Virus record (IMG/VR): IMGVR_UViG_2778261180_000005
Source: a virus
Taxonomy: Duplodnaviria; Heunggongvirae; Uroviricota; Caudoviricetes
DNA: 36,121 bases
Direction: 5' to 3' (one strand)
How positions within the stretch are numbered: position 1 is the first letter of the stretch; every line of letters starts with the position of its first letter. Under the pieces are notes generated by a model. That model did not search any database. It was not told the origin of the DNA and was given only the letters and a program-made list of their open reading frames with translations. Shown here one piece after another: positions 961 to 36,121 of the stretch. The translations under genes were made by a program, and so were the position numbers.

Positions 961-1000
961 GCCCCTATCGTTATAATACGCGGTAGGGGCGTTTTTGTTT
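961..1000 (+). terminator. rho-independent terminator
   Basis: GCCCCTA(961-967)/TAGGGGC(984-990) stem followed by TTTTTGTTT. Confidence 0.7.
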
Positions 1001-1009
1001 GGAAATGGT

Positions 1010-3761: not shown

Positions 3762-3796
3762 ATTAGTGTCCTCGAAAATAATAAGTTCACTACTAT

Positions 3797-4249: not shown

Positions 4250-4289
4250 TAAAGGTAATGCCTATAAGATAAATTAAGTGAGGTTTTTT

Positions 4290-17091: not shown

Positions 17092-20000
17092 TTACCCTAA
17101 TTTAGCTTCAATTGCAGCAAGACGTTCACGAAGAAGTTTATTTTCTTCGCTCATTTCTTGGACCGCTTTAATTAAAAGCGCGTTCACTGCGGAGTTTGAA
17201 ATTGTTAAAATTTCTTCTGGGTTATCAAGAGATCCGACATTAGAAGTGCTAACAGCTTCCGGTAAAATTTCTTGTAAATCCTGTGCGATAATACCAATCT
17301 CATGTGCGATGACTTCTCTGTCAGAAAGAGACTTAACTTTATCGTAGGTTTTAACTTTTAGTTTATTTACCTTATCTACCGCATTTTCTTCGTAGTCTTC
17401 AACGTTAATTTTCAGACGACGGTCGGAACGAATATAAACATCGTTACAGTAAACCGACGCACTAGATGTGAAATCACCATTTGCAGCCCATGAATACCAG
17501 CCGCCTTTGTTCATATGCATCATTACGGTAGCTTGACCACCGCCAGCATGAACACCCATTGCCGCAAGATGATCAACACCCCAATGAGTTGCTTTCCAAA
17601 TTGAATATGCTTGGGTATGTGAATCCTGACAATCTAAGAGAATACCAGCAGGACGGTTGCGCCAGTCATCCCATGCACCACCAGAAACCTCACCACGGAT
17701 AAGAGCGTATTCACCATTATATGGAACACGTTCTCCCGCTTTAATCATTGCACCCTGGAAGTGATGACTAAATGAACCCCCATGATTATTTCGTATATGT
17801 AAAATACCATCATCTGTAGCCCAGATAACAGCCTTTTCCGATTCGCTGTCATCTCTAAACCAGATATGGCGTGCACCAGTTGAGTTTTTGATGGTTATTC
17901 CGGTAGGTCCATGCACGGTCAAAGCACCAGCTACATCAAATAAAACGGTGTTATCTGTTCTACGTTCAGTATAGAAGTGATAACCTTTGGAATCGCCGAT
18001 TTCCATTACTGCCGCGCGTCCAACTTCTGAATTTCCCCAATTGTTGATAGAGAATCGTTCAGAGCTATTATTCATCTGATTTAGGTATAATGTACCGTCA
18101 GTGAATGTTTCGCCAAAGAATCTAGTTTTAATGCTATTGGTTCCGGTGCGTTCAAATTCGGCTAAAAATCCTTTTGAGTCACGAAGACTTAAAACGTTAT
18201 TTCGACCTGTATTGCTTGCCCCCCAATGGACGAGTTCCATATAGTCCATAGATTGACGAGAACCAGATTTAAATAAAAGGTTGTCTTCGAGACGAGTGCT
18301 ACCATCAATTCCCAGGTGCAAACAACGAGCGGTTTCAGTACCACCTAAATATAGTCCACCATCATCAAAATTATAGCTGAATGGTCTGCGATTATTCCAA
18401 CTACCAAAAGAATCTTTTAAATTGGTAGTAAGAATATGGAAGCTAGAACCGTCATTGCGTAACATCAAACCATAGTTACCGCCTTTAACAGCCAAACGAG
18501 CATTTTCAGATAATGCAACTTCGCTATTCATTACAATTTTCTGGCCTTTACCACCAGTAATATGTAATTCACCGTCTTCGATCAAATTTATCGAGTTTTG
18601 ACCGTTATCGTTCCACCAAATAAAATCTTTGGTCGTCAAATCACCAAAACCAAACCAGCCATTACGAACATCTTGACCAGTGCGATAATCCATAAAATTA
18701 AAATGGCTTGCTTCGTTTGGTCCTCGACGAATATCAATACCAGCATTAGAACCGGAACCTAAGCCACCATCGATGGTCAATCTACGAATATGCAAACCGG
18801 TTACAGCCGAAAGCAATAATTGTTGGGTTACATCGGTATATCCAGTAGCAAGACGATAATTTTGGTCATCAACACTTTCGTGCCAGATAGTGGCAGGAGC
18901 AGAACTACGGAAGCGACGCAACATCTTTTTAGCATTTGTCGGTTGTTCGTTCATATGCTCAATGTCGTATTGGCCTTGATGGTTTCCAGCAAAATTTAAC
19001 GTTCCACGGTTGCTAAAGTTATTGAACGATGAAATGTTAAGAGCATCAAAAATTTCATCTGCAACAGGTTTTTCACCACCCAGATATTCAGGAGTATCCA
19101 ACAGGTTTAAAGAAACACCACCGGAAGAAACTTGATATTCTGCTAAAACAAATCCTGTATGTGCACCGTAGTAAGCGTAAAGATCGTAATTATCACCATC
19201 GGTTGGAATAGCGCAAAAATGTTGTTCATAATGCCAAATAGTATAATACGCATTGAATACAACACCTTTCGGGCTATTGTTGCCGCATCGAATCACCAAT
19301 TCGATAATATTGGCTTGTCCATTCATCCCGACGTTATAACCGTTACCACCAACCAAACGGATCTTAGCGGTGCGACCGTGTTGCTGTGGCATTGTCAAAG
19401 TGCCTAGTTTAAACCAACCACCCTCGATCCCAAAATTAAGCGTCTTCTGGAACAGTCGGTCAATTTCTGCTTTCGAATATGCGCCAATTTCAGCCGGAGT
19501 AGGTTTATCGCCTTCATGATACATGCGGTGAGAATATGACAAGTTACCCAATTCATCGTAGCCGTATGTTCTTACCGTATGAACCGGATTAGACCCATAA
19601 GTGAACTCAAAGCCACGAGCATGATTAACACCAGATGGATGCGGAACATGCAAGATCATTGCAATATGACCCGCCAGGTCATTCATGCGGAATGCACCAA
19701 AGTAGTCAAGATTACGCGCACTCGGATCATCAAAATAGTTTGCGGTCTTAGACAACAAATAACCATCAGTATAAGTGTTTACGTGTTTTTTGATGTACTT
19801 GCCATCACTCGATCCGTCGGCTGCATCAATACGGCTTTCTAAGCGTGCCAGTTCAGAATCAGTGTAAGACTTGTTATTGTCAACTTTGCTATGAATTGCT
19901 GAATTTTTGGCTTCAACATCACGGGTTAATGCTGCGACGTTATCCGCTGCCTCTTGCTTATTAGCCGCAATCACACCAGTAAGGTTATTGTAGGTGTCAG

Positions 20001-20613
20001 TTAACTGATTTTCCGCATAGACTTTATTTGCTGCGATAGTGCGGTCAGTTTCTGTCTTAATCAGATCAACTTTGTCATTGATTGCTTTGTCATTACTTGC
20101 GATTGTCGCGTCGGTACGGGATTTAATATCATCAACTTTTTTATTGATGCGGGTGTCCAGTTCCTGAGTTGCTACAGCAGCCGCATTTTTATTAGCGTTG
20201 ATGGTATCCGACAATTCAGCTTTAACACCAGCAAGATCGGAAGCAGCTTTATTTTTATTAGCTTCGATTGTCGCGTCGGTTTCGCGTTTAATTACATCAA
20301 CTTTATTGTTAATTTCTGCATGATTTGCTGCGATAGTAGAATCAGTAGTTTGTTTAATTTCATCTACTTTAGCGTGAATATTGCGGTCATTTACTGCAAT
20401 TGTGCTATCCAATTCTTGTTTGTTAGCATCAACTTTAGATTCTAGTGCCGCGTGAGTTTCAGGAGAAACAGAGATTTGAACTACTTCATGATCTCGGTCT
20501 TTGGTAAAAATAACATGGTCTTTAAGGTTGATTGCCACCTCACCGACCTGTAATTGTTCCGGCGTTGGCTTTTTGCCAGAAACATTAGTTCGTTTAAATT
20601 GGATTGATTGCAT
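17092..20613 (-). CDS. side tail fibre with C-terminal intramolecular chaperone (peptidase S74-like) domain, 1173 aa
   Basis: N-terminus KPTPEQLQVGEVAINLKD; about six ~22-aa repeats (KVDxIKxxTDxTIxAN); C-terminus SDRRLKINVEDYE...GIIAQDLQEILPEAV typical of autocleaving fibre chaperone domains; GAGGTGA SD. Confidence 0.85.
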   Translation of the reverse strand: MQSIQFKRTNVSGKKPTPEQLQVGEVAINLKDHVIFTKDRDHEVVQISVSPETHAALESKVDANKQELDSTIAVNDRNIHAKVDEIKQTTDSTIAANHAEINNKVDVIKRETDATIEANKNKAASDLAGVKAELSDTINANKNAAAVATQELDTRINKKVDDIKSRTDATIASNDKAINDKVDLIKTETDRTIAANKVYAENQLTDTYNNLTGVIAANKQEAADNVAALTRDVEAKNSAIHSKVDNNKSYTDSELARLESRIDAADGSSDGKYIKKHVNTYTDGYLLSKTANYFDDPSARNLDYFGAFRMNDLAGHIAMILHVPHPSGVNHARGFEFTYGSNPVHTVRTYGYDELGNLSYSHRMYHEGDKPTPAEIGAYSKAEIDRLFQKTLNFGIEGGWFKLGTLTMPQQHGRTAKIRLVGGNGYNVGMNGQANIIELVIRCGNNSPKGVVFNAYYTIWHYEQHFCAIPTDGDNYDLYAYYGAHTGFVLAEYQVSSGGVSLNLLDTPEYLGGEKPVADEIFDALNISSFNNFSNRGTLNFAGNHQGQYDIEHMNEQPTNAKKMLRRFRSSAPATIWHESVDDQNYRLATGYTDVTQQLLLSAVTGLHIRRLTIDGGLGSGSNAGIDIRRGPNEASHFNFMDYRTGQDVRNGWFGFGDLTTKDFIWWNDNGQNSINLIEDGELHITGGKGQKIVMNSEVALSENARLAVKGGNYGLMLRNDGSSFHILTTNLKDSFGSWNNRRPFSYNFDDGGLYLGGTETARCLHLGIDGSTRLEDNLLFKSGSRQSMDYMELVHWGASNTGRNNVLSLRDSKGFLAEFERTGTNSIKTRFFGETFTDGTLYLNQMNNSSERFSINNWGNSEVGRAAVMEIGDSKGYHFYTERRTDNTVLFDVAGALTVHGPTGITIKNSTGARHIWFRDDSESEKAVIWATDDGILHIRNNHGGSFSHHFQGAMIKAGERVPYNGEYALIRGEVSGGAWDDWRNRPAGILLDCQDSHTQAYSIWKATHWGVDHLAAMGVHAGGGQATVMMHMNKGGWYSWAANGDFTSSASVYCNDVYIRSDRRLKINVEDYEENAVDKVNKLKVKTYDKVKSLSDREVIAHEIGIIAQDLQEILPEAVSTSNVGSLDNPEEILTISNSAVNALLIKAVQEMSEENKLLRERLAAIEAKLG
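20010..20470 (-). repeat. in-frame tandem coding repeats within the side-fibre gene
   Basis: Recurrent DNA blocks (such as CGATTGTCGCGTCGGT...ATCAACTTT) encoding the KVDxIK..TDxTIxAN repeats; coordinates approximate. Confidence 0.6.
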
Positions 20614-22425: not shown

Positions 22426-24405
22426 TCATTCGGAGATGTGAAGAACTTTCAGAGCTTCCGGCTGGGTTACAACATAGTCCAGATCTACCCAGATACGCGG
22501 AACGATAGCGGACTGTGCACGGTAGGTGGTGTCGTCCATATCCAGTTCCAGACCGCCCCACTCACCGATAGTAATACCGGAGAAGTCACCCAGAACGATG
22601 TGATCTGCCGGGATAACACCAGAAGTAACTACATCGTAACCAGCCAGTTTGCCGTTTTCGATGATATAACCGGAAACACCGTTATCTTTCAGGGTAGATT
22701 CCAGTTCAGCAGCAGTTGCACCGCTCATCGCAAACTTGATCGCCTGAGCAGGAACGCCAGCGTCGGTCAGTGCTGCAATTTCTTTCAGGAAGTCTTTGTA
22801 GCTGAAAGCGGCTTTCTTAGTAACACGGCTTGCATCAACCAGTTGTTTAACCAGACCAGCAGGACCGCGCTCATTGTCTTTGTCAGACAGAATCAGTTGT
22901 TCCAGTTTGATGCGAACAGCCTGGTTGATGTGATCAGTGATCAGGGTAGCGATACCCGGAACGGTTTTAATGCTCTGACGGCTGATCGGGTTGCCACCAG
23001 CAAAAGTCTTAGGAGACAGTTTCACGTTTGCAAATTCAGCTTTGCCTTCCGGTGCAGCACCGTTTTCATCAACGAAGCCGAAAGCGTCAACGCTGGATTT
23101 AGTCATTTTTGGAATAGCGGTCGGAGCAGTCAAGCCACTGTAAACAGTCACACCCAGACGACCCAGAACGGATTCCGGCATCAGCATTTCGATGTAGGAT
23201 TCAGTCAGCAGTTTTTCGTCGGTGATAGCAGTCAGGTCAGCTTTGGTGTTACCAGCAGCAGCAGCACGCATAGCAGCAGCAGGAACGAATACAGAGCCAC
23301 CACGAGCAGCACGACCACGCTGCATAGTTGCAGTAGCAGCCATTGCGGAATATTCAGCTTCATGAGCGCCGAGCACGTCGCCATCTACCAGGGAGCGGAT
23401 TACGTTATTAAGATCGAAAGTTTTTTCCATTTTAGAGTCCTTAATTTGTTGTTCGTTGTTACGTTGAGCAGTAGCGATTTTATTTAGTGCCTTAGTGCGG
23501 AATGCTTCCGGCGTCATGTCTTTAATTGCTAATGCGCGTTTCAATTCTTCGTCATCAATATTTAGTTCGCGTGCAATTTCGCGAATTTCTAATTCGTCTT
23601 CTTCGGAACGTTCAGCCACTTCTTCGATTTTTTCTTCTTCAATCGGAGCGGCTTCACGTTCTTCTTTTACTTCTTCTGCTTCCCGAACAGTTGAACTATC
23701 ATCATCAACACTTTCAGGATGTTCAGCGTCTTTTCCGTCTTCGAGATTTTCATCTTCTTTATTCTCTTCAACTTTCGGTTCTTTATTTTCTTCTACCGGA
23801 GTTTCTTCAACCTGAGCGGGTTCTTGTTCTTCTTTGATTTCTTCGATTTGTTCTTTAGTCATATCGCGTTTAGCCTCCAAATTAACTGTGATAGTATTTA
23901 GAGAGCGATTTAAACCGACCGTATCGTCAGCAGGAACTGTCACAAATGAAATTTCAAAGGGTGCCCACTTAGTAACAATCAATTGTCCTTTAGCGTAATC
24001 GATGTGATACTCTTTAATGTCATAGCCGACCGATATTTTTTCCATCGTACCTTCAATGACTTTATTACGAATATCATTAGCCAAAGTCCCATGCTTAGAG
24101 AATTTAACCAGAGCACGGCCTACGTTATCCGCATCGATTCGAGCGTTACAGACAACACCAATGTGATTATCGAAATTATGATTGAACAGCAACGGAGCGT
24201 TATTATTCAGGCGAGACAGATCAACCGCTTCCGGTGTATGTACCAGAATTTCATCTAATACCACCATTTCTTGATTTTGCTCATCCCAGAATTGGCGCTG
24301 GTAAGGCTGGGTACTGGAGAAAGCAATTTCAAATTCGTATTGATCGTTATGCCCTTCGTTAATAACTCCACCGTAACCGTTAAGATCGCGGCGAAATTTA
24401 AGCAT
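22426..24405 (-). CDS. prohead protease - scaffold - major capsid protein fusion (659 aa)
   Basis: N-terminal HK97-type prohead protease motifs (LLFNHNFDNHIGVV, KISVGYD, EISFVTVPAD); acidic linker; C-terminal HK97-fold capsid-like region; host-like codon usage; AAGGTGA SD. Confidence 0.8.
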   Translation of the reverse strand: MLKFRRDLNGYGGVINEGHNDQYEFEIAFSSTQPYQRQFWDEQNQEMVVLDEILVHTPEAVDLSRLNNNAPLLFNHNFDNHIGVVCNARIDADNVGRALVKFSKHGTLANDIRNKVIEGTMEKISVGYDIKEYHIDYAKGQLIVTKWAPFEISFVTVPADDTVGLNRSLNTITVNLEAKRDMTKEQIEEIKEEQEPAQVEETPVEENKEPKVEENKEDENLEDGKDAEHPESVDDDSSTVREAEEVKEEREAAPIEEEKIEEVAERSEEDELEIREIARELNIDDEELKRALAIKDMTPEAFRTKALNKIATAQRNNEQQIKDSKMEKTFDLNNVIRSLVDGDVLGAHEAEYSAMAATATMQRGRAARGGSVFVPAAAMRAAAAGNTKADLTAITDEKLLTESYIEMLMPESVLGRLGVTVYSGLTAPTAIPKMTKSSVDAFGFVDENGAAPEGKAEFANVKLSPKTFAGGNPISRQSIKTVPGIATLITDHINQAVRIKLEQLILSDKDNERGPAGLVKQLVDASRVTKKAAFSYKDFLKEIAALTDAGVPAQAIKFAMSGATAAELESTLKDNGVSGYIIENGKLAGYDVVTSGVIPADHIVLGDFSGITIGEWGGLELDMDDTTYRAQSAIVPRIWVDLDYVVTQPEALKVLHISE

Positions 24406-26539: not shown

Positions 26540-28444
26540 TTAGAACGATGTTACCCAACTACGGCCTCTATTTGGACGTCTGGCGATGTTTTTACGTTGT
26601 GGTCGTGTGATTGGCTTAGTTTCTTCGATTTTCTCGTCAGATTGCGATTTAGGAGCTTTTACGGGTTCTTCGACAACACGGTTTAAGCTGTCTTTCATTG
26701 CAATGAGTTTATCCCATGACATTTTTGAAAGGACGTAGCGAGAAGCCGCTGTAGCATACACGGCGCAGTCGAGCGCCTCGTTCCTAACGCCTGGGTTCTT
26801 TACCCATCTCACGCCAGTAGTAGTACGCTTGACAGATTCACTTAAAAGCTGATCGAGATAATCATCAGGAACGGTGTCTGATATTTCTAAGCCAATATGA
26901 GGATTATCTTTCAGGTTCCTAGCCAACATTTCACGAAATGCAGTTTTACCCACATTAACACCCAACATAAGCAATTCATGACCACCTGTGCGGGTAGGTT
27001 TAACCGGAATGATCGGAGCGTTACCAGCAGAACTACCTTTGATAGCGTGTAAGTTCTTCCACTTGCCGCAAATACGGTATCCAGCTTGAGTGAATCGACC
27101 GTTCGATGTATCAAGGAAGCTGGCGAGCATAGGAACACGATCACCCGATACAGTAGTAAATTTGGTTTTATGGAAGTTGATTAATCTATCCCATACAGGG
27201 GATTCATATCGTTCACAGTTATGATCGTAAAAGCTGCGATGATCCAGAATATAAATCTTATCCTTTGCCACGCCCATGATTGTAGTTTCTGCGCGATCTA
27301 ATTGCTGGTCGGTACCCGCACACAAGAAAATCACGTCATCAGGGATATTCTCGATAGAAACATCTGTTTTTAGTTGTTCCAGTTCATTTGCTTCTACTGC
27401 CGTGTCCTGATCGTCGTATACCTTGCCTAACACGGTGTTATAAAATGATTGTAAATCAAAGGATTGCCACGCATGGCTAAAATCAACCACACAAGCGCGG
27501 ATCGTGCTGAAAGGTGAATACAGACGGCTGATCCAGAATCCTGCTACCTCACTTTCACGGGTTGCTCTCCACTCGCCTTGTGCTACTGCCCTGATTCGTT
27601 CCCCTTCGGTCCATGCGTTCTTACAGTGGGGGCAAATATAACGAGCGGTATCAGGATCGGGTAAGTTCTTACCATCGATGTTACGCCATTCAAATTGAAC
27701 GTTTTCCCACTCGATCACCTGGTGTTCCCCGCAATGAGGACACGGAACAAAAAACATACGCATATCACTTGATAACCATTGCTGGTTAATGCTTCCGAGC
27801 TTACTGGTCGGGGTACTGGATACGACTAATCGGCCTTCATCGCCAAAGGTAGTTAAACGGTTAGCAGCCAGTGCCACCGGATCACCTTCTTCTGAGGCTG
27901 TAGCAGCATCGATTTCGTCAAGCAATCCAACCTTTGCGGTCTTACCGCGTAGGGTTGATGGACTAGTAAGCGATACCATATAAAGGAAGTGGTTTGATTT
28001 GAGCTGGAGCTGATTGTTGTTATTAACAGAATTGCGATCATTCTTGTCTGTAACCACGTCTTTTAATGCATCACATGCTTCGATAGACGGTCGGATCTTA
28101 CCCGCGAGATATTGAGACATTTCTTTAGCGGTTGATTGTCCGATAATCATATTGCATGGATCGTTAGCCATCTGGTTAAACAGGATACCGTTTAGGATGG
28201 TAGTTTTTCCGATCTGCGCACTGGTCATCAGTACATACTTTTTCTTATTCTCAAGGAAAGGAGCATCAATCATGCCTTTCTGGAATGACAGCAATTTAAC
28301 TTTATCCCCCGCTTGAGGACCATCTACCAGCACCATATTCGCTTCGCACCATTCAGAAGGAAGGAGTTTAGGCGGTGGCGTAATATATTTGGCTGCATTT
28401 TTGAGAATCTTTTTTAATTTGGCCTTATTAGAAATCAGTTTCAT
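26540..28444 (-). CDS. terminase large subunit, lambda gpA family (634 aa)
   Basis: Walker A (SAQIGKTT); gpA-like motifs [30 protein letters not shown]; GAGGGT SD. Confidence 0.9.
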
Positions 28445-28487
28445 GTAATTACCCTCATTACGAAATATGAAGGTATTTATTAAATTG

Positions 28488-28515
28488 TTGATATTTTGAT
28501 AAATACGGGTATTAA
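28488..28515 (+). promoter_or_regulatory. candidate sigma70 promoter for the rightward accessory genes
   Basis: TTGATA, 16-nt spacer, TATTAA. Confidence 0.35.
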
Positions 28516-28529
28516 TTAAAGGGGGGTGT

Positions 28530-29132
28530 ATGCTAATTAATCAGCAACAAAGAGATGAATTAGAATTAGCCTTGTCTTGTACCGATCATGAATATCGTTT
28601 ACCAGTTAAGCATAAGCATTTAAAAACCGACTACACAACATCTGGCTTTAGTCGTGAGGAAGCGAAAGAGATTTTAATAGAGTTTTACCGCGATAATGGT
28701 TATACAGACGTTCACAACTTCTTTAAGAAGCATAGAACATCACATACAGAGTTTCGGAGAGTCCGAGATTGGTTTGATTTTGATATCAAGCGTTATTATC
28801 GAGTGGATGACGGTCCTATCTATCGGTTGCAGTGGACACCGATCAGGGAAGTGTTGAAACAGAAGAGATTGAATCACGCAATTACACGCTATCGTAACGA
28901 GGCTTTCAAGAAAGGCTATGGTGATACAAGGGAACTATTCGTTGAACTCGCTAACGTGCGTTATAGCCACTATTACAACGATCCTAAAGGGTTCTTTGAA
29001 GTGCTTCGCAAGGTTGATATAAGTCGGGGTACATACTATTCACGGTTGAAGAAGTACGGGATTAAGGCAGAGTTCTTTATGAGTATTGACGATGGAGAAC
29101 TTTTTCCGATAAAATGTAAGTCCTCTAAATAA
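28530..29132 (+). CDS. hypothetical protein with C-terminal HTH (200 aa)
   Basis: AAAGGGGGG SD; C-terminal [17 protein letters not shown] is homologous to the HTH of the 77-aa and 60-aa proteins. Confidence 0.6.
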
Positions 29133-29160
29133 AGGTGAACATTCACTTTAATTTGGAGAA

Positions 29161-29394
29161 ATGACTATGACTACTAAAGCTACTCGCGGTCGTCCTTGCC
29201 GTTTTAACGCTGAACAGATGGCTGATATTGCCTACGCTTACTATACAGCGGATCGTGGTAAGGAAGCGAAAGAACAGATTCTTAGTGAACATGGGATCTC
29301 AATCGCCCAATTCTATAAGAATATGAAGAAGTTAGACATTAAATTCTATGTTCAGATCGGTGATGGTCAGATCGTAGAAGCAACAGGTTTTTGA
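29161..29394 (+). CDS. small HTH protein (77 aa), terminase-small-subunit N-domain-like
   Basis: RGRPCRFNAEQ...GISIAQFYKNMKKLDIK; the ATG at 29167 has better SD spacing than 29161. Confidence 0.6.
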   Translation: MTMTTKATRGRPCRFNAEQMADIAYAYYTADRGKEAKEQILSEHGISIAQFYKNMKKLDIKFYVQIGDGQIVEATGF

Positions 29395-29409
29395 GTTTTG
29401 ATTCTCTTT

Positions 29410-29433
29410 GCCACTCTTCGGAGTGGCTTTTTT
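29410..29433 (+). terminator. intrinsic terminator
   Basis: GCCACTC ttcg GAGTGGC followed by TTTTTT. Confidence 0.85.
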
Positions 29434-29566
29434 GTATGTAAAACAATCTCGCCAGTTTTGGTGAGATCTATAGATGCCCTCAAAACTGAGGGGATGTGCT
29501 TAAAGTTCAGCATATCTATCTAAGTGGTTGATTCTTTCTAGAAATCCAAATCTGGATGCATCAGAT

Positions 29567-29598
29567 ACAAAAAAGCCCAGCGCAATTATGCGCCGGGC
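29567..29598 (-). terminator. intrinsic terminator after the Rha-like gene
   Basis: GCCCAGCGCA atta TGCGCCGGGC stem followed by a U-run on the minus strand. Confidence 0.8.
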
Positions 29599-29604
29599 GA
29601 TTAA

Positions 29605-30435
29605 TCAGATCCCAAAATCAACAAGGGAAATTACGTTACCTGATTCACGAATCTGTTTAGCAGCTTTGTTTTGAATCAGAATAGTGTTGTTCGGCTTAGG
29701 AAGATTCAGAGTTGCTTTTTGTTCTTCTTCCAGAATACCCAATTCAACCAACACAGGAAGAACATCAACCGTAAACTCAAGTTGGTAGTGAGCATTCATG
29801 CGGCAGAAAGACAGAGAAGAGTCATTAGCAACATACCCACACGGCTTGTTATTTTCATCGTAGACGCGCTCAATGTAGCCAGCAGTACGCAAGGCCGTTA
29901 GTGCTTCTTTAACCTTCGTAGCGCCCTTTTTAGCGCCTAACAGACGGGTCATTGAATGGCTATCTACTGATTTGCGAACATGAAGTTCAATCAGCTTTTT
30001 ATTTTCGCGAGTTTTCTTTAATGCCAGTTCGATCCAGTCTGTTTCTTCAAAGTCTGCATATGGATTAACGGCTAAACGTTCCTGACGCAGTTTTTCATTT
30101 TCTTCTTTCAGTCGCTTCCATTCCTGAATAACAACCATTCGACGCTTAACATCGTAACCAGTGACAAGAGTCAGCGTCATTTCTTCGTCTAAGTGATATA
30201 CTGGTTCTTTAACAGCATATCCTAAGTTATTGATTCTCTCGACAAATTCAGTTTTGAGCTGATCGATAATACCTAAAGATTCGTACATTTCGCGAATATC
30301 GCGCATTACATTGCTGTGCTTCTTATCGGTAAATTCAGCGATCTGACGAGAAGACATGGTCAGCGGTTTGGTGTTATCAACAACCAGAGACATTGAAGCA
30401 GTTTTAACAGTATTCATAGTAGTAACAGTATTCAT
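29605..30435 (-). CDS. Rha-family phage regulatory protein (antirepressor-like), 276 aa
   Basis: N-terminal LTMSSRQIAEFTDKKHSNVMRDIRE; start uncertain because of a tandem ATGAATACTGTTA duplication at the 5' end. Confidence 0.7.
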   Translation of the reverse strand: MNTVTTMNTVKTASMSLVVDNTKPLTMSSRQIAEFTDKKHSNVMRDIREMYESLGIIDQLKTEFVERINNLGYAVKEPVYHLDEEMTLTLVTGYDVKRRMVVIQEWKRLKEENEKLRQERLAVNPYADFEETDWIELALKKTRENKKLIELHVRKSVDSHSMTRLLGAKKGATKVKEALTALRTAGYIERVYDENNKPCGYVANDSSLSFCRMNAHYQLEFTVDVLPVLVELGILEEEQKATLNLPKPNNTILIQNKAAKQIRESGNVISLVDFGI

Positions 30436-30538
30436 AGTAAAAATTCCCCTTAAACGGTTTAGTGATTGATTCTCCTGTTTTTAACTGTCCACACGCCAAC
30501 GGCGCGCGGAACAATTTTATTTATAAGAAGTTTTTATC

Positions 30539-30685
30539 TCATTTAGATTCAGCAATCGCGCGATCAATTTCTTCTTGAATGCGACGCTGGCGTTCATGGA
30601 AGTCAACCATTGAGAAATTCAGGTTTGGGGTCCACGGTTTGCGGTTCGGGTTTTTACGTCCATCAATTTTCTTAGTAGTGTTCAT
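30539..30685 (-). CDS. small basic protein (48 aa), candidate
   Basis: Not in the ORF track (under 60 aa); AAGAGGA SD 7 nt upstream; consensus promoter directly upstream. Confidence 0.5.
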   Translation of the reverse strand: MNTTKKIDGRKNPNRKPWTPNLNFSMVDFHERQRRIQEEIDRAIAESK

Positions 30686-30743
30686 AATTAACATCCTCTT
30701 TACAAATCTAGGTCAAATAGGTTCAAAGTTGTCAAGTGCGATA

Positions 30744-30772
30744 ATCATAAAAAAGTCATAAAATTTTGTCAA
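30744..30772 (-). promoter_or_regulatory. sigma70 promoter (minus strand)
   Basis: TTGACA, 17-nt spacer, TATGAT when read on the minus strand. Confidence 0.6.
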
Positions 30773-30807
30773 TACCCCTTGACAAGACGCCAAAGGGTTG
30801 ACCTAAC

Positions 30808-31260
30808 TTACAGCATATCTAAGCCTTCATCGTAACCGTAGAAGCCATTCTGAGAAGAGAAGCAGATTGGTGCGTAGTCGTCGTCATCTTCGTCTTGTTC
30901 ATCGTGTTCTGGGGCTTCCTGAGCGGGTTGTTTACCATAATCAGCCATAATCTGGTCAAGATCGGCGATCCCATAGTAAGAGCCTAAATCAACGTCATAT
31001 TCACGAACATCAAACGGCAGGTCATCACGAACAATAATTGCCGGAATGTTGTTGTATTGTTCACGACCTTCATCAGTAAAGCAGTCTACGATCACCGTAG
31101 GGCGACCATTACGTTTAAGAGCATAGAAAGCAGTTGAGAAATTGGAGTCTTCGGAATGACGAATGATGTTATAACCACGATTAGCGAAAACATGCATCAT
31201 AGCCAGATTATCATCATGGTTCAGACCCAGAAGAATGAAAGGAGTTTTAGTATTGATCAT
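30808..31260 (-). CDS. hypothetical protein with acidic C-terminal tail (150 aa)
   Basis: AGAGGA SD; a 6-bp inverted repeat operator-like site sits upstream. Confidence 0.6.
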   Translation of the reverse strand: MINTKTPFILLGLNHDDNLAMMHVFANRGYNIIRHSEDSNFSTAFYALKRNGRPTVIVDCFTDEGREQYNNIPAIIVRDDLPFDVREYDVDLGSYYGIADLDQIMADYGKQPAQEAPEHDEQDEDDDDYAPICFSSQNGFYGYDEGLDML

Positions 31261-31281
31261 AGTGGAAATCCTCTAAAAGAA

Positions 31282-31303
31282 AGTGAATCAAAGTAAGTTC
31301 ACT
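31282..31303. promoter_or_regulatory. palindromic operator-like site
   Basis: AGTGAA-N10-TTCACT between the putative promoter and RBS of the 150-aa gene. Confidence 0.4.
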
Positions 31304-31464
31304 ATTATTTATAACGAGAAATTTTTGTCTAATTTGAAAGGAATTGGTATTCAGTCGGCTTCGCCTCCTTCATAGATTTTGATTAAATCATCATCAAAAC
31401 GAAGAAGTATCTTTAGAATATAAGAATCTTTCTTTTGGAGAAATAATAATCCGGAAGCAATTTA

Positions 31465-31493
31465 GCAACCGAAGGTTGCAATCCCGAAGGGAT
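31465..31493. other. two adjacent short hairpins with GAAG loops
   Basis: GCAACC gaag GTTGC and ATCCC gaa GGGAT. Confidence 0.4.
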
Positions 31494-31522
31494 ACCAATA
31501 CCTTTCATGATCATTAAAGTGA

Positions 31523-31750
31523 TCTAGAATCATCTAGTAACCAGTTAACTACTATTATCTTCAAAGTGATTATTACTATCTTTCTAGAATCAGTTAGTAA
31601 CTAGTTTAAAATCCCTTTCAAGAAAATCCTTTCAGAAGTGATTCTCGATGCCACGCAGTGGCGTCGCAGACGTTTGAGAGTGAGCGAAGCGAGCGAGCAA
31701 ACTAGTTAATTCCTTCTAAGACCATCTAGTATCATCTAGTTTAAATTAGT
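31523..31750. repeat. CTAG-rich direct repeats (about 27 bp, 3 copies)
   Basis: TCTAGAATCATCTAGTAACCAGTTAAC at 31523, TCTAGAATCAGTTAGTAACTAGTTTAA at 31583, related copy at 31723; TCTAGAA also occurs at 29537. Confidence 0.6.
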
Positions 31751-31943
31751 GTTACTAGAAGTAATTGGTTAGCGCTTCGCGCAGTCGGGCTACGCCCTCC
31801 TAATATCTTTTTGGTTATTTGTTGTTTTTGGTTTTACACATGAGCGTAGCGAATGTGTTATATAATATCTATGCACGCCCGATCCCCCGCTTTTGCCCCT
31901 CACTAAGTTAATGTTTTATAAAGAGTTTTTCTCACCAATCCTT

Positions 31944-32131
31944 TTCGGGGGCAAATTTCAGGGGCAAAAATTAGATTTTCAGGGGCAATTATTGGCATTT
32001 CAGGGGCAAAAATGAGGGGCAAAATCACTGTTTCCCAGAATTTCAGGGGCAAAAATAGTGGGTTTCAGGGGCAAAAATGGGATAGTGAAATCTAGGGGAT
32101 TTTGGTTCAGGGGCAAAATTCAGGGGCAAAT
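31944..32131. repeat. iteron array, about 10 copies of TTCAGGGGCAAAA
   Basis: Copies begin at about 31944, 31957, 31978, 31999, 32013, 32041, 32063, 32092 (variant), 32106 and 32119; spacing is mostly 13-22 bp. Confidence 0.85.
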
Positions 32132-32135
32132 TTCA

Positions 32136-32185
32136 TAGTGTAGGGCTAGTGTAGGTTTGAAAATCCTTTGTTGACACTGTGTAGG
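32136..32185. promoter_or_regulatory. TAGTGTAGG direct repeats (2 copies plus a TGTGTAGG inside the promoter spacer)
   Basis: Copies at 32136..32144 and 32147..32155; related copy at 32178..32185. Confidence 0.5.
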
Positions 32186-32199
32186 ATCGGTGGTATACT
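32171..32199 (+). promoter_or_regulatory. near-consensus sigma70 promoter
   Basis: TTGACA (32171-32176), 17-nt spacer, TATACT (32194-32199). Confidence 0.75.
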
Positions 32200-32591
32200 T
32201 GAAAATTCGAGATAAATATGTTATAATATTTGTATTGAAAGTGAAAATTTACCGATTTTCCTTCCTATTGTTATCACTGTGTTAAATTGTTATATGTCTG
32301 TGAAGATTTGGATCTGAGAGAAAATCTTGTAACAAATCTTTACAATTCATAGCTCAATTAATGCTCACCGCTTTAGCAAAAAGTGCTATGCCTTTTTCTA
32401 AATTGATTGAATAAACATCAATTTGGTTAATTCGTGTTCTTCTCTTTAGCAATTCGTGCTGCGGTTTAACACATTTAACACGCCTGATAACATCCAAATA
32501 ACATTTTAACATATCTCTGTTCTAAATACATATATAAGAGATAAATGTGAGGGGTTGAAAAATTAAAAACAATCCCCATATAAATAATAGT

Positions 32592-32612
32592 GAGCGGTTA
32601 ACGCTCTTTTTT
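32592..32612 (+). terminator. intrinsic terminator/attenuator ending a ~400-nt untranslated transcript
   Basis: GAGCG gttaa CGCTC followed by TTTTTT. Confidence 0.55.
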
Positions 32613-32647
32613 AAGAAATCATTAATCCAGATTTAGGAGGATTCAAG

Positions 32648-32830
32648 ATGGCACGACCTGTTAAGTTCACTCGTGAAATCGTTTTAGAAATGGCAAAGCG
32701 TTATTTTGAACTGACGCCTGATGTAGTGATTGGTGAATGGTTTAAAGGTGAAGGTATTGATCAATCAACCTTCCACAAACTCTTAAAGAAGTATGACATT
32801 AAAGTAAAGATAACCGCAGAGGTTTACTGA
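32648..32830 (+). CDS. small HTH protein (60 aa), paralog of the 77-aa protein
   Basis: Strong SD TAGGAGGA at 7 nt; MARPVKFTRE...GIDQSTFHKLLKKYDIK. Confidence 0.7.
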   Translation: MARPVKFTREIVLEMAKRYFELTPDVVIGEWFKGEGIDQSTFHKLLKKYDIKVKITAEVY

Positions 32831-32871
32831 TACTTTGACTGAGAATTATATGATGGCTTTAAAAATAAAAA

Positions 32872-32900
32872 AGCCCCCTTGCGGCAACAAGGAGGCTTTT
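32872..32900. terminator. intrinsic terminator (leaky/bidirectional)
   Basis: AGCCCCCTTG cggcaa CAAGGAGGCT followed by TTTT; an A-run lies upstream. Confidence 0.65.
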
Positions 32901-32942
32901 GCGATGAACAATTAAAACTAACTTTCCACAGGAGTATTTATA

Positions 32943-33884
32943 ATGTTATTTTCCGCTAACTTTTTCACTAACGAAGTAACCAACGCTAAAGCAGTTATCA
33001 AATTTGGCACCGAAGCAAACAAGAAGATTCAGCCGAAAGTTGTTGCTCATGTTTCCTTTGCGCAGCAGAAATCCGCTTTCGCTGGCTTTAAAGCACATCG
33101 TGAAGCACTGATCGCGGCTGGCTTTGGTGTTGACGGTAAACTGCCTAACGGCATTCGTAAAGCAATCGACCGCGTTAAACCTGCTAAAGACGTTGCAGTA
33201 GACCACATCGTTACTTTTACCGTTAAGAACTCTTCTGAACTGTTCCACCTGGTTATTGCTGGTGATACTGCTATCGTTTCCGCTCCTAACATGGATTTTC
33301 AGGATACCGCTGATTGCCAGATCACCTTCGGTCGTCGTAAAGAAGTTACCGGAAAAGCTAAACTGAACTTCACTAAATCCGGCAATCCTTACTTTGCTGT
33401 TTTCTTTAACAGCCACGCTACCGAAAAAGAAGTTGTAGAACTGGTTGCTTATGAAGGTGAAGAGAAAGAACGTATTGAATCTTGCGAAGCATTTCTGGAA
33501 CTGGAAGCACAGGTGAATGCTGTTTCTCCGGTTGTTGAAGATCGCTTTGCTGCACTGGAAGCACAGATCGCAGAACTGAAAGCTGCACTGGAAGAAAAAG
33601 ACCAGATTATCGAAGCACAGAAAGCTGAGATTGAAGAACTGAAAGCTAAAGAAGTTGCTCCGGTAGCAGTAGTTGAAAACGCGGCTGATGAGGCCGCAAA
33701 TGATGAAGTAGAAGTGAAAATCGATGTGATGCGTGATCCGATGGCTGCACTGCAATTACTTCGTTCTTTTAAGGGCAAATCTCATTTTTCTAGTGATGTA
33801 GAAGATGAGGAAGAAGAACAGAAACGCAATGCTGCAATGCTTCATGATGAAATGTACGGTACTAACTTTTCTTACTGCCAATAA
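32943..33884 (+). CDS. hypothetical coiled-coil protein with strongly host-optimised codon usage (313 aa)
   Basis: SD AGGAG; codons dominated by CTG, CGT, GGT, GAA, AAA and CCG, unlike the rest of the element; central coiled coil and acidic C-terminus. Confidence 0.8.
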   Translation: MLFSANFFTNEVTNAKAVIKFGTEANKKIQPKVVAHVSFAQQKSAFAGFKAHREALIAAGFGVDGKLPNGIRKAIDRVKPAKDVAVDHIVTFTVKNSSELFHLVIAGDTAIVSAPNMDFQDTADCQITFGRRKEVTGKAKLNFTKSGNPYFAVFFNSHATEKEVVELVAYEGEEKERIESCEAFLELEAQVNAVSPVVEDRFAALEAQIAELKAALEEKDQIIEAQKAEIEELKAKEVAPVAVVENAADEAANDEVEVKIDVMRDPMAALQLLRSFKGKSHFSSDVEDEEEEQKRNAAMLHDEMYGTNFSYCQ

Positions 33885-33906
33885 AAAAGGGACTCCGAAG
33901 AGTCCC
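33883..33906. terminator. intrinsic terminator (mainly for minus-strand transcripts; hairpin abuts the stop of the 313-aa gene)
   Basis: A6 then GGGACTC cgaa GAGTCCC. Confidence 0.7.
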
Positions 33907-33983
33907 TAGTAAGTTTAGGTTAGGTTTTGCACAACAAAGATGAGGTTATAATGAACATAATGCTACATTATTCTTTAAAGCCA

Positions 33984-34010
33984 GAAAAATAACCGCCCCC
34001 TTCGGGGCGG
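33984..34010 (-). terminator. intrinsic terminator (minus strand)
   Basis: CCGCCCC cttc GGGGCGG preceded on the plus strand by AAAAATAA, which is a U-run on the minus strand. Confidence 0.7.
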
Positions 34011-34168
34011 GAGGATTAATACTCAATCTATACTTGTTATGTTTTTATGTTGTATAGTCACTGACTATGAAAACACTGTACTGAATGTGTTTTATGGCTT
34101 TTAATCGGGAACTCTCTTTCGAAAATTCCCTGTTAAAACCACATAAGGAGAAAAGGCAGATTACAATA

Positions 34169-34453
34169 TTATTTAGTCTGTTTGAAAACAAACGTTAAAA
34201 ATTCGATTAAGCAATATACCCAAAGTACGGTCAGCATCAAATGCATAGCAATAGTTGGATGGAAGTTAAAAAGTGTCATACTAACTAGGCCAACAATATA
34301 AGAAATCCCTTCGACAATTAACGCAAGGCTAGCAAATGCAACAAACGCACCTAAGAATAATTCGCCTCGTTCTTTCGGTTCGGTTCCGAGTTTATAAGCA
34401 GAGATAGCAGCCAGAATAGTAATGATGACAGCATAGGTAATAAAAGTAGCCAT
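34169..34453 (-). CDS. small integral membrane protein (94 aa, about 3 TM segments)
   Basis: AAGAGGA SD; hydrophobic segments ITYAVIITILAAISAY, LGAFVAFASLALIVEGISYIVGLV and LMLTVLWVYCLIEFLTFVF. Confidence 0.65.
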   Translation of the reverse strand: MATFITYAVIITILAAISAYKLGTEPKERGELFLGAFVAFASLALIVEGISYIVGLVSMTLFNFHPTIAMHLMLTVLWVYCLIEFLTFVFKQTK

Positions 34454-34547
34454 AGTTTTATATCCTCTTAAAAGTTAAGCGGGGGATGTTCTCCCCCGTA
34501 GACGTTGACCCGTTCAACATCTTTCTCACTATTATTTATAACGCGTT

Positions 34548-35105
34548 TTAAGACACATCAAATTCATCGTCTTCTTCTGGTTCTTGTTCTTCCGGTTCAT
34601 CCATTAATGGTAATTCTTCTTCCTCGTCTTCTCCCAAATCTGCATTTTCGAACAAGTCCCCTACTTCATTTAAACGACGCTCGATAATCTCCCTTAGCTT
34701 ATTCTTTAATGTTTTCTGGTCAGTGGCAGATTCGAGAATTTCTAAAGCGTCGATTGTGGCGATCTGCAAAATAGTCTGCTTCACTTTCCCGCAGTATTCC
34801 GCTAGCTCCTGCTCCACATAACCGACGGGAATCAGGAGATTCATTTTTTCCTGGTTCTCTCGTTCGATGGCGTCCGCTAATGCTCTTTCTCTGCGGAGAC
34901 GTTCTTGATCAATCGCTTCTTTGATTGAAGTTTGTTTAAGTGGGTTAATTACGTTCTTTAGCACCCAATCGCAACCTTCCTTTGCTGGTACACGACGCGT
35001 GTGGGTGTTCATCGGTAGTCCCCTTTCTAACCATCGCTTACCGCCACCATTCAATGTATAGCCATATAAACGGGAAATTTCTGTAAGGGTTAATTCTTCT
35101 TTCAT
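34548..35105 (-). CDS. Nu1-like winged-HTH protein; candidate terminase small subunit (or other DNA-binding factor), 185 aa
   Basis: GGAGGA SD; N-terminal LTLTEISRLYGYT...WLERGLP resembles the Nu1/MerR-type wHTH; coiled coil; acidic C-terminal tail. Confidence 0.5.
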   Translation of the reverse strand: MKEELTLTEISRLYGYTLNGGGKRWLERGLPMNTHTRRVPAKEGCDWVLKNVINPLKQTSIKEAIDQERLRRERALADAIERENQEKMNLLIPVGYVEQELAEYCGKVKQTILQIATIDALEILESATDQKTLKNKLREIIERRLNEVGDLFENADLGEDEEEELPLMDEPEEQEPEEDDEFDVS

Positions 35106-35401
35106 TGGTTATCCTCCATTAAATTTGCGTAATTTTATTTATTGGTTTTACGCAAAATCTAAGCGCCTAAATCGCATTCTAACGAAGGGAAAGATCCAGT
35201 AATGGTAAGGGTTAGGAAGTGGGTTAATAGTCGCGTAGCGACCGCGCCATGAGTGAAGTGATCACGTTTTAGATCCTGACGCGCACATCAAATAACGGGG
35301 TGCCGAAAACTCGCTTTATTTCACCCGTGGAACAGTACCTTTTGATTTTGTCAAGTCTTTTTTATAAATAATCGAAAATATTTTTCACGCGAGGGCAAAT
35401 C

Positions 35402-35707
35402 ATGAAGACTAAAGATATTAAGATTGAATTTGAAACTGTTGATGACGTTCGGGAACATCGTATTGATTCTACTGGCTGCATCTTCCAGCTTACTAACTCC
35501 CCTATTGGATTGATTATCTATGTAGCAGAAGATGACGTGTACGCTATGTGGGATGGACAGGATGAATTTAAAGGCGGGAATAGCCATCTGATCAATACTC
35601 ATGAGGGATTCGATCCGACTCCTGTCTGTATGCTTGCTTATCACGTAACACTGGATGAACTACCGGAAGCAAGCGCGCGTATCCGTAAAATGAAAGATAT
35701 TAAGTGA
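35402..35707 (+). CDS. hypothetical protein (101 aa)
   Basis: GAGGG SD 7 nt upstream; followed by a terminator. Confidence 0.6.
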   Translation: MKTKDIKIEFETVDDVREHRIDSTGCIFQLTNSPIGLIIYVAEDDVYAMWDGQDEFKGGNSHLINTHEGFDPTPVCMLAYHVTLDELPEASARIRKMKDIK

Positions 35708-35726
35708 TGTAAGTGATTGATTCTAT

Positions 35727-35755
35727 AGCCCTGTCCTTGTGATGGGGCTTTTTTA
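35727..35755 (+). terminator. intrinsic terminator
   Basis: AGCCC...GGGCT stem followed by TTTTTTATT. Confidence 0.6.
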
Positions 35756-35770
35756 TTGCAAAAATTTTAG

Positions 35771-36121
35771 TTATTGGGGTTTACAACATTTAGGTTTGCC
35801 AATTCGCCTGGCTAACTCTTGCTGAGTGATTTCTGACTGTAAAAAAGCATTTAACAGCAATACTTTAGAGGCGACGCTCAAAGGTACTTCAATAAAGTGA
35901 TCATGACTATTTAATGGCGAAGGTAACGGGATAAGCTCGTTATCTTCAAAATAAAAATCAAATGCGGTCAGTAAAGCATCTTTTGCCGCTTCCATCGCTT
36001 CAGCGACAGTTTCGCCCTGCGTCAACGCTTCAGGGATATCCACAAAAGAAACCATATAACCGCCTTCCGGCGCGGGTGTAAGAGTGACGGGATAACGCAT
36101 AATTTCGACTGTCTCTCGCAT
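35771..36121 (-). CDS. hicB: HicB-like antitoxin, apparently truncated at its 3' end
   Basis: MRYPVTLTPAPEGGYMVSFVDIPEALTQGETVAEA... N-domain with enterobacterial-like codon usage; HTH begins (SEITQQELARRIGKPK) but the ORF ends CCKPQ* five codons later, at the composition switch. Confidence 0.7.
   Translation of the reverse strand: MRETVEIMRYPVTLTPAPEGGYMVSFVDIPEALTQGETVAEAMEAAKDALLTAFDFYFEDNELIPLPSPLNSHDHFIEVPLSVASKVLLLNAFLQSEITQQELARRIGKPKCCKPQ

Follow-up and report, generated by a model that had tools for sequence, protein, structure and literature searches.

The O protein of phage lambda and the Rep proteins of iteron plasmids are each matched to their own direct repeats. Lambda O, a protein of about 300 aa and a ClpXP substrate, combines a type-specific N-terminal part that fits its iterons with a shared C-terminal part that docks a partner; recombination occurs between the two parts, and its early gene follows a small Cro-like gene and a terminator. 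In the plasmid systems (RepA of pSC101 and P1, RepE of F and pi of R6K; family Rep_3), direct iterons spaced at about 22 bp with an inverted copy, together with a promoter, precede a gene of about 300 codons whose product is specific for its own iterons. The p6 protein of phage phi29 is a very abundant early protein that forms a multimeric nucleoprotein complex at replication origins and affects early promoters. Here we analyze a 313-aa protein encoded in a siphovirus-type prophage (IMG/VR record IMGVR_UViG_2778261180_000005, Caudoviricetes; the whole stretch of 36,121 nucleotides is called the window). It shares with lambda O its approximate size, its modular build and the placement of its gene, and with the plasmid systems the layout of the locus, and it is probably the partner of an array of direct repeats that lies upstream of its gene.

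Two further systems pair a type-specific protein with a cognate DNA element. In the PLE satellites of Vibrio cholerae, the N-terminal DNA-binding domain of RepA and the iterons of the origin co-vary between related mobile elements, much as we observed here, and this specificity module is exchangeable (PMC7145576, PMC8263062). BstA, a prophage protein, has about 300 aa and a DNA-binding domain at its N terminus; its locus contains a cognate element with direct repeats, and its variants form protein/DNA pairs that are not interchangeable (PMC8585504). Specificity pairs of protein and iterons are of a known kind. The family described here, its predicted fold, its extreme expression signature and the exchange of two cassettes are undescribed.

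N-terminal domain types pair with iteron types

The 313-aa gene stands directly downstream of a 60-codon open reading frame (ORF), p60, and about 1 kb (0.8-1 kb) downstream of a cluster of short direct repeats, the iterons, with the core AGGGGCAAA (Table 1). We fetched 26 IMG/VR loci with the small-terminase-like (terS-like) protein as the probe and noted for each locus which gene follows the p60 homologue and which repeats occur in the 1.5 kb preceding p60. In 29 of 29 loci with a p60 homologue (the window included), a gene encoding 305-380 aa, here called the slot gene, lies directly downstream of p60. These loci are from four host genera, with hosts E. coli, Salmonella, Proteus and Providencia, and the slot-gene product has the same architecture in all of them: a basic N-terminal domain (N-domain), then a coiled coil and usually an acidic tail. 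Wherever the context is readable, the slot gene lies between the Rha operon with its non-coding region on one side and the terS-like gene on the other.

Table 1. Positions of the features discussed, numbered from the first nucleotide of the window
Feature	Position	Strand	Remarks
313-aa ORF	32943-33884	+	ATG start; product identical to WP_000898985.1; highly codon-optimized
Basic beta-rich N-domain, residues 1-158	32943-33416	+	Type-specific module co-varying with the iterons
Long single helix, residues 182-236	33486-33650	+	Read as an oligomerizing coiled coil; only weak matches of coiled-coil type
C-terminal peptide MLHDEMYGTNFSYCQ	33837-33881	+	Preceded by an acidic stretch
Shine-Dalgarno sequence AGGAG	32930-32934	+	8 nt before the ATG
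Hairpin between p60 and the 313-aa gene	32869-32900	-	14-bp stem; strong intrinsic terminator for minus-strand RNA
Hairpin immediately past the stop codon of the 313-aa gene	33888-33907	-	Minus-strand intrinsic terminator
Second downstream hairpin	33993-34010	-	Minus-strand intrinsic terminator; ends the convergent operon (terS-like gene and 94-aa ORF)
Tandem near-consensus sigma-70 promoters	32171-32227	+	TTGACA-17-TATACT and TTGAAA-17-TATAAT; 11/12 matches each; extended -10 TG in both
Untranslated leader, ~420 nt	32228-32647	+	Small hairpin at 32592-32606
Direct iteron array TCAGGGGCAAA	31945-32130	+	Nine copies with <=1 mismatch; only cluster in the window
Single inverted iteron TGAGGGGCAAA	31892-31902	-	1 mismatch to TCAGGGGCAAA; at the distal edge of the array
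Two TAGTGTAGG copies (the type-B iteron)	32134-32160	+	Adjoin the array
60-aa ORF (p60)	32648-32830	+	Always precedes the slot gene
Large serine integrase	995-2689		
Lambda gpA-type large terminase (terL)	26540-28444	-	
Rha-family gene	29605-30435		
Nu1-like small-terminase (terS-like) homologue	34548-35105	-	

Across 28 loci, five N-domain types pair one-to-one with five iteron types. Type A (MLFSANFF...), to which the window belongs, was found in 13 loci with 4-9 copies of AGGGGCAA, and type B (MKNSKRITFN...) in 12 loci with 5-8 copies of AGTGTAGG. The remaining three types are represented by one locus each: type A3, whose N-domain is 38% identical to that of type A, with nine copies of A[CA]GGACAA; type C, from Proteus, with 15 copies of TAGGGAT[GA], mostly at an 11-bp period; and type D with 11 copies of [AG]CGGGGA. 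All 13 loci of type A contain the iteron core of the window, and loci of the other types lack it. Iterons do not cross between types except for relic type-B repeats in type-A loci (TAGTGTAGG, 0-2 per type-A locus and 5-8 per type-B locus), and the two copies in the window are probably a relic of cassette exchange within the array.

Comparison by blastn delimits the exchanged segments. Against the type-B locus L024, similarity is lost over 31642-32266, which contains the iterons, and returns at 32267 for 676 bp (32267-32942) at 90.8% identity, ending one base before the ATG; it is then lost over exactly the ORF (32943-33882) and is back at 33883. The converse is seen with type-A loci that have the other p60 allele: here the iterons and the ORF are conserved, and the middle module is not. 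There are two p60 alleles (~55-58% and 83-100% identity to that of the window), which assort independently of the iteron and N-domain type, and both are found with type A as well as with type B. Because the p60 module lies between the iterons and the gene and recombines independently, the match between N-domain and iterons is functional and not mere linkage. No other protein of the locus tracks the iteron type among those compared (p200, p77, Rha, p51, p150, p60, p94, terS and the terS N terminus). The co-variation thus points to the N-domain as the specificity partner of the iterons, which most simply would bind them, and we consider it likely that the 313-aa product is the cognate iteron-binding protein. 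An earlier interpretation of the window made from the letters alone (hereafter the sequence-only reading) had offered as its alternative an unusual protein for replication or partition that is tied to the iterons, and the one-to-one co-variation of N-domain and iterons supports that alternative.

Within the window, ten copies of TCAGGGGCAAA with at most one mismatch all fall within 31892-32130, and none occurs elsewhere in the 36 kb; at up to two mismatches, there are 16 matches versus 8.8 expected. Six copies of the array are in phase at multiples of 21-22 bp, and three satellite copies each lie 13 bp from a neighbor. The distance from the end of the array to the -35 element of the downstream operon differs between lineages (~40 bp in the window, ~190 bp in L009 and ~540 bp in L005), and the nearest minus-strand promoter is ~560 bp away from the iterons. 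In one locus, L031 (2640-4874, 5770-6210), slot genes occur as a tandem pair (371 and 363 aa), and two iteron arrays lie next to each other, one of CCCCGG[TA]ATTAG (about eight copies) and one of TGTACAAGGA (about 14 copies at a 10-bp period).

Architecture of the 313-aa protein

The sequence-only reading had described a beta-rich N-terminal domain, a central coiled coil and an acidic tail, and our AlphaFold2 model agrees with this description. The N-domain is predicted to be beta-rich with three helices (pLDDT 77.7 and pTM 0.77 in a model of the N-domain only), residues 182-236 form a single long helix, and the acidic remainder is disordered. Charge is distributed unevenly, with a pI of 9.75 and a net charge of +8 for the N-domain and a net charge of about -24 for the remainder. 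The N-domain pI is 9.5-9.8 in types A, A3 and B, and type C is weakly basic (8.3). Homologues keep the N terminus MLFSANFF. An hhalign comparison of the type-A N-domain with types B, C and D detected no homology, and hence we claim no common fold.

The segment encoding the helix is a recombination joint to alternative C-terminal tails. L021 and the protein P0131 carry the helix segment with another tail or another N-domain; in P0131, an ORF6N domain takes the place of the N-domain, and the coiled coil and the alternative C-terminal tail are kept. Some type-A proteins (L021 and L006) have a tail of ~65 aa ending in RKAA or RRAA that is joined within the coiled coil. The motif [ML]xLH[DM]x[MI]Y[GD]T, which follows the acidic stretch, is common to N-domain types A, A3 and B. 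With one C-terminal module shared by specificity modules that are interchangeable, the C-terminal peptide may serve to dock a partner that all types have in common. In many members of the family the last residues are -AA. The type-B variant in L018 (3224-4249) ends in an expanded AY repeat (...SAYAYAYAYAYAYAA), and other type-B proteins end in ...SAYAYAA. The -AA ends are reminiscent of ssrA-type ClpXP degradation tags.

In agreement with the sequence-only reading, which could assign no motif, we found no informative match in searches for families, defence systems, structures or folds. Searches of Pfam, PHROGs, NCBIfam and PADLOC with the window protein, and in part with types B, C and D and the alternative tail, gave nothing beyond coiled-coil noise. 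The sole hit in PADLOC-DB was a weak match of coiled-coil type to LmuB (E = 0.0038), types B-D giving nothing or equally weak noise, and a PHROG of head maturation proteases matched weakly over the coiled coil (E = 0.009). A sequence search of the PDB gave no match, nor did Foldseek against BFVD at E <= 0.001.

Expression signals

The codon adaptation index (CAI; Sharp and Li weights for E. coli) of the 313-aa gene is 0.645, the highest among the 36 ORFs of the window. Next in rank are the tail tube gene (15620-16093; 0.613) and the capsid protein gene (22426-24405; 0.517), and the majority of the other ORFs have values of 0.2-0.4. Two claims made from the letters alone, codon optimization and a strong Shine-Dalgarno sequence (Table 1), are borne out. 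The codons used are almost exclusively CTG (13 of 17 Leu), CGT and CGC (together 10 of 10 Arg), GAA (32 of 36 Glu), GTT (20 of 30 Val), GCT or GCA, and ACC or ACT; ATA, AGA, AGG, CTA, CGA, CGG, CCC, GGG and TCG do not occur. The final ~70 codons are less optimized (0.42-0.46). GC content (0.434) and GC content at third codon positions (GC3; 0.35) are within the range of the other ORFs of the window, and the ordinary GC3 indicates that the bias reflects translational codon choice, or selection, and not base or foreign composition. Slot genes of the other loci are similarly adapted, with CAI values of 0.645-0.724 for type A, ~0.70 for type B, 0.557 for type D and 0.554 for type A3. The CAI of p60 is 0.21-0.36 versus the high values of the slot gene in every E. 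coli and Salmonella type (0.55-0.72). The second slot gene of L031 has a CAI of 0.37 and encodes a basic C-terminal half.

The tandem near-consensus pair (Table 1) represents the sole strong plus-strand promoters ahead of the 313-aa gene, and we found no promoter between p60 and the gene; the pair would drive an operon in which the two genes are co-transcribed. A 15-nt repeat overlaps the -35 element of the first promoter and recurs in the leader at 32268-32282. The candidate palindromic operator ACACTGTGT has two occurrences only, both in the operon's own promoter and leader region, and is not shared with other promoters. There was no Rfam match over 28000-36121.

The gene had been described as bracketed by terminators on both sides, with two consecutive minus-strand terminators at its 3' side, and as an insulated, moron-like unit. 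Hairpins are indeed present on both sides, and the polarity assigned to the two downstream ones is correct; the upstream hairpin is a minus-strand terminator as well. The T-tracts of all three are on the minus strand, and in the sense RNA only UUUU follows the upstream hairpin and the two downstream hairpins are without a U-tract. The position of the T-tracts suggests that the hairpins mainly stop antisense transcription arriving from the convergent terS operon, and on the sense mRNA they may serve as stabilizing end structures. Each hairpin has its T-tract only on the antisense strand and no strong promoter was found between p60 and the gene, which therefore does not behave as an autonomous unit with a promoter and a terminator of its own. 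The upstream hairpin is conserved in L005 and L009, and the hairpins keep this arrangement in Proteus and in E. coli loci of type B. Taken together, the strong promoters, good ribosome-binding site, optimal codons and flanking hairpins indicate that the product is made in very large amounts. By these sequence features, the protein would be required in large amounts whatever its role, and abundance would be a property of the slot.

A core gene of an uncharacterized prophage lineage

Proteins identical or near-identical to the 313-aa protein are found in hundreds of E. coli entries, all labeled hypothetical. An exhaustive HMMER search of 1.84 billion representatives returned only two real distant homologues (50% and 34% identity), along with the protein P0131 described above; the hits P0130 and P0132 were discarded as repeat-protein artifacts. 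A second search added proteins from Salmonella, Providencia and Proteus, some of which combine an unalignable N-domain with a similar coiled coil and tail. The alternative C-terminal tail, used as a query, matched one fragment only, and a profile scan of genome contigs with the terS alignment returned nothing. Among 5,426 complete E. coli genomes, 35 carry type A and 18 type B (~1%), and all of these copies are chromosomal, none being on a plasmid. One genome carries prophages of both type A and type B. The complete genome of BS74R-D has two such prophages with an identical type-A N-domain, one in ycdX and the other at a second site.

The sequence-only reading had favored a lysogenic-conversion, exclusion or defence factor of the moron kind. 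Presence in 29 of 29 loci and a GC3 of 0.35 are at odds with the sporadic presence and foreign composition of morons, and the gene occupies the same position in every p60 locus in four genera and has no PADLOC match beyond the noise mentioned above. On this comparative evidence, the 313-aa gene is very probably a core gene and not a moron.

In the window prophage, the large terminase gene and the lysis, tail and head genes are on the minus strand. They are followed by the Rha-family gene, a 1.4-kb non-coding region and the plus-strand p60 and 313-aa genes. The copy in E. coli ETEC1703 is ~38 kb and is bounded by two halves of ycdX, and we recognized neither a replication protein nor a CI-type repressor anywhere in the ~38-kb prophage. 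The large terminase of the closest isolated phage is only 45% identical to that of the window, and the 313-aa gene has no match in 50,697 isolated-phage records; megablast and tblastn searches of isolated phages with types A and B and the alternative tail likewise gave no match. Both findings indicate an uncharacterized lineage, and the window prophage belongs to a temperate siphovirus-type family with serine integrases in the Enterobacterales. A literature search for the protein accession or for the ycdX prophage found nothing relevant.

A possible role at the replication origin

The reading we prefer, one that we hold to fall only slightly short of probable, is that of an abundant, type-specific, iteron-binding core protein, most likely an organizer or initiator of the replication origin. 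The gene would be a core early gene that is transcribed with p60 from the two near-consensus promoters. The basic, beta-rich N-domain would recognize the ~10 short direct repeats 0.8-1 kb upstream, and the central coiled coil would join subunits into a multi-protein complex on the array. The acidic linker and the conserved C-terminal peptide, or the alternative tail of ~65 aa, would dock a partner common to all specificity types. The outcome would be recognition or organization of the origin, that is, initiation of replication, by the logic of lambda O, plasmid Rep and phi29 p6. DNA binding, co-transcription with p60, the timing of expression and the replication role are what we infer from the observations above. 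A function of the protein at the replication origin, taken by itself, is tentative, somewhat more so than the composite reading.

Several features of the locus favor an origin. The iterons form a single cluster, phased and including an inverted copy, upstream of the gene's promoter; the varying distance between array and promoter argues against a promoter-proximal operator; the phage is otherwise without a candidate initiator; the promoters look early lytic; and the modular logic matches that of lambda O, plasmid Rep and PLE RepA. A number of observations weigh against it. Initiators are normally scarce, and codon optimization above that of the capsid protein is unexpected for one. The precedent of phi29 p6 indicates that high abundance and origin function can coexist. 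The 313-aa gene is on the strand opposite nearly all lytic genes, as is typical of genes expressed in lysogeny, and diversity of cassette types among otherwise near-identical phages is also seen in immunity and self-recognition systems. Two slot genes with two arrays, as in L031, are odd for an origin. The predicted fold is not a known initiator fold, and neither sequence nor fold places the protein in Rep_3, Phage_rep_O or the winged-helix proteins. The prophage encodes no helicase or helicase loader. A tblastn search of plasmids found no homologue. Near the iterons of the window there is one relaxed DnaA-box match (31832), which is at chance level, no consensus site for integration host factor (IHF) within 31300-32300, and no marked AT-rich dip or unwinding element beside the array.

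The 313-aa protein and its locus also differ from each of the described systems. In contrast to lambda O, to which the protein has no sequence or fold similarity (no Pfam or PDB match), the iterons are ~1 kb upstream and not inside the gene, there is no P-like helicase loader, the gene is extremely codon-optimized and the protein has a coiled coil. Unlike the iteron plasmids, the window has neither DnaA boxes nor an IHF site beside its iterons; the protein lacks a Rep_3 or winged-helix signal and has no plasmid homologue, and a 420-nt leader and another gene intervene between promoter and gene. PLE RepA belongs to the RepA_N family, is not similar to the 313-aa protein and comes from a different host and type of element. 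The p6 protein of phi29 has 104 aa, little sequence specificity and an unrelated sequence, and acts at the ends of a linear genome. BstA is KilA-N-like and occurs sporadically among unrelated prophages, unlike the 313-aa gene, which is a positional core gene; its aba element is a single 63-bp element that overlaps the gene start, compared with 8-15 repeats 1 kb upstream here.

The pattern of exchange invites comparison with phage immunity. A type-specific regulator of lysis and lysogeny could bind the array, oligomerize or spread through its coiled coil and repress or activate two divergent early promoters, those of the Rha operon on the left and of its own operon on the right, and the cassette types would then be heteroimmunity groups. 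Exchange of exactly the ORF together with its cognate sites, between phages that are 84-100% identical in their other genes, is what an immunity region classically shows; the gene runs counter to the lytic genes, with terminators insulating it from them, no CI-type repressor is recognizable elsewhere in the prophage, and abundance would suit a silencer that spreads along or coats DNA. We nevertheless consider such a regulator rather unlikely. The iterons overlap no predicted promoter, and the distance to the operon promoter ranges from ~40 to 540 bp across lineages, with the closest minus-strand promoter ~560 bp off. Near-consensus promoters with extended -10 elements look early lytic and not like maintenance promoters. 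A Cro-like p60 would be expected to share the operators of the repressor, yet p60 assorts independently of the iteron type, and the two prophages in BS74R-D coexist with identical type-A N-domains. Neither Pfam nor NCBIfam detected a helix-turn-helix or S24 peptidase in the 313-aa protein, the AlphaFold2 model of which is beta-rich, and no other repressor signature was seen. The same type-specific pairs and the same orientation and insulation would also fit a defence or abortive-infection protein that is abundant in the lysogen, attacks the replication of incoming phages and is titrated or inactivated by its own array once the prophage starts to replicate, for which there is a precedent in an N-terminal DNA-binding prophage protein that is cancelled only by its cognate direct-repeat element (PMC8585504). 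The KilA-N-related ORF6N domain that replaces the N-domain in P0131 points in this direction, and two genes with two arrays in L031 would be easily explained. We regard this as unlikely on several counts: the PADLOC models gave no match to BstA or to anything else besides coiled-coil noise; in 29 loci from four genera the gene is never missing or swapped for unrelated cargo, which is the behavior of a core gene and not of a defence island; morons are usually poorly codon-adapted, whereas this gene is the best adapted of the phage; and the phage would be left without any origin-binding candidate.

Two other roles seem very improbable. An abundant protein unrelated to the iterons, either a scaffolding or decoration protein of the virion or an annealing or single-stranded DNA-binding protein (SSB) with an acidic tail, would account for a CAI in or above the range of the capsid and tail tube genes and for a coiled coil and acidic tail like those of scaffolding proteins and SSB-like tails, and it would suit the weak PHROG match to head maturation proteases. 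Such a role leaves the replacement of the N-domain in step with the iterons unexplained; moreover, the gene is not part of the structural operon and is on the other strand, a protease/scaffold part is already fused to the capsid gene, the acidic stretch is not at the extreme C terminus, and the protein does not show the OB fold with a terminal acidic tip of SSB-like proteins. Least probable is a partition protein that binds the array as a centromere. The 8-15 direct repeats, phased at 10-11 or 21-22 bp, do resemble parC-type centromeres, but the prophage encodes no NTPase of the ParA, ParM or TubZ type, the protein has no ribbon-helix-helix or helix-turn-helix signature and no plasmid homologues, all copies in complete E. 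coli genomes are chromosomal and a serine integrase is present. Two further candidates were rejected: a recombination directionality factor for the serine integrase, given that such factors bind integrase and that the iterons are 3.6 kb from the attachment site, and recognition of a packaging site, given that terS alleles do not track the iteron type.

Returning to the origin-protein reading, a bolder version, which we find possible and yet more doubtful, is that the 313-aa protein founds a class of phage proteins for origin recognition, or self-recognition, that is as yet undescribed. In an abundant protein, a non-canonical beta-barrel-like iteron reader and a coiled-coil multimer would be joined to a C-terminal peptide, short and conserved, that recruits the host replication machinery. 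Gene and iterons would be exchanged between phages as matched cassettes that define replicon types in a widespread enterobacterial prophage family lacking canonical replication and repressor genes. If the protein is an initiator, it would represent a new DNA-binding fold for origin recognition in a phage that replicates without a helicase or loader of its own; if it is instead a determinant of immunity or self-immunity, it would represent a new kind of type-specific recognition system. In either case the family is a possible source of orthogonal pairs of protein and DNA site. The strict matching of cassettes offers a testable handle on how such a phage recognizes its own DNA, in that it points out protein and sites together with at least five specificity swaps that occur naturally and could serve as controls. 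In this prophage family, the entire early region encodes proteins of no known function.

Further features of the early region and the prophage

The p60 protein has two paralogues in the window, the product of a 77-aa ORF (29161-29394) and the C-terminal part of the product of a 200-aa ORF (28530-29132). The three share the motif (R)GRPxxF...GI(S/D)...F(Y/H)K..KKxDIK, which resembles resolvase-type helix-turn-helix domains, and none has a match in Pfam, PHROG or NCBIfam. The p60 protein may be a small helix-turn-helix regulator, and all three are candidate regulators of the phage family.

The non-coding stretch between the promoter of the Rha operon and the iterons (31335-31890) contains many short GC-rich hairpins with GAAG or TTCG loops, among them mini-hairpins of the GCGAAGC type at ~31683 and, on the other strand, at ~31772. 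It also contains four TCTAGAATCATCTAGTA-like repeats and two GATC sites (31505-31535). Between iteron types, its left part (up to 31641) shows 74-79% conservation, and all lineages have repeats that contain TCTAGAA. This stretch may be part of an origin, carrying single-strand initiation signals, or may encode an RNA. A 28-nt inverted repeat with 79% complementarity (31299-31326 and 32566-32593) carries TTATAAATAATAGTGA, which lies over the -10 element of the Rha-operon promoter and recurs in the opposite orientation just upstream of p60; these sites may be a shared operator or a second promoter. L006 is the one locus with perfect DnaA boxes: three copies (TTATCCACA) at 9690-9860, in the interval that separates its p60 homologue from its slot gene. 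The window and the other loci have none.

The terS-like and terL genes of the window are separated by the entire early region of ~6 kb. In the distant relative L033 (5983-8362), terS and terL are adjacent, and it appears from this comparison that the early module was inserted between them in the window lineage. The end of the window prophage (35771-36121) adjoins a hicB antitoxin gene with an altered 3' end, and other members of the family split ycdX (L001, L004, L037 and L038 were compared). In two E. coli genomes (L036 and L037), the 5' side of the slot gene is cut by IS3 or IS5 (ISKpn26), and at least the copy in EC05 (L037) is a decayed prophage remnant.

Genes resembling those of homing endonucleases are found at 2763-3902 and 4278-4871 (PHROG matches to 'endonuclease'; CapR domain). 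The ETEC1703 copy (L004; 5973-9361 and 15643-16413) has, in addition, a GIY-YIG nuclease; a NUMOD3 protein is encoded within its tail module, and a DEAD/DEAH helicase adjoins its integrase. These genes are variable accessory cargo. The capsid gene (22426-24405; 659 aa) consists of an S78-type protease/scaffold part (Peptidase_S78) fused to Phage_capsid, and a gene of 1173 aa (17092-20613), similar to the distal subunit of tail fibers, lies between the head and tail modules.

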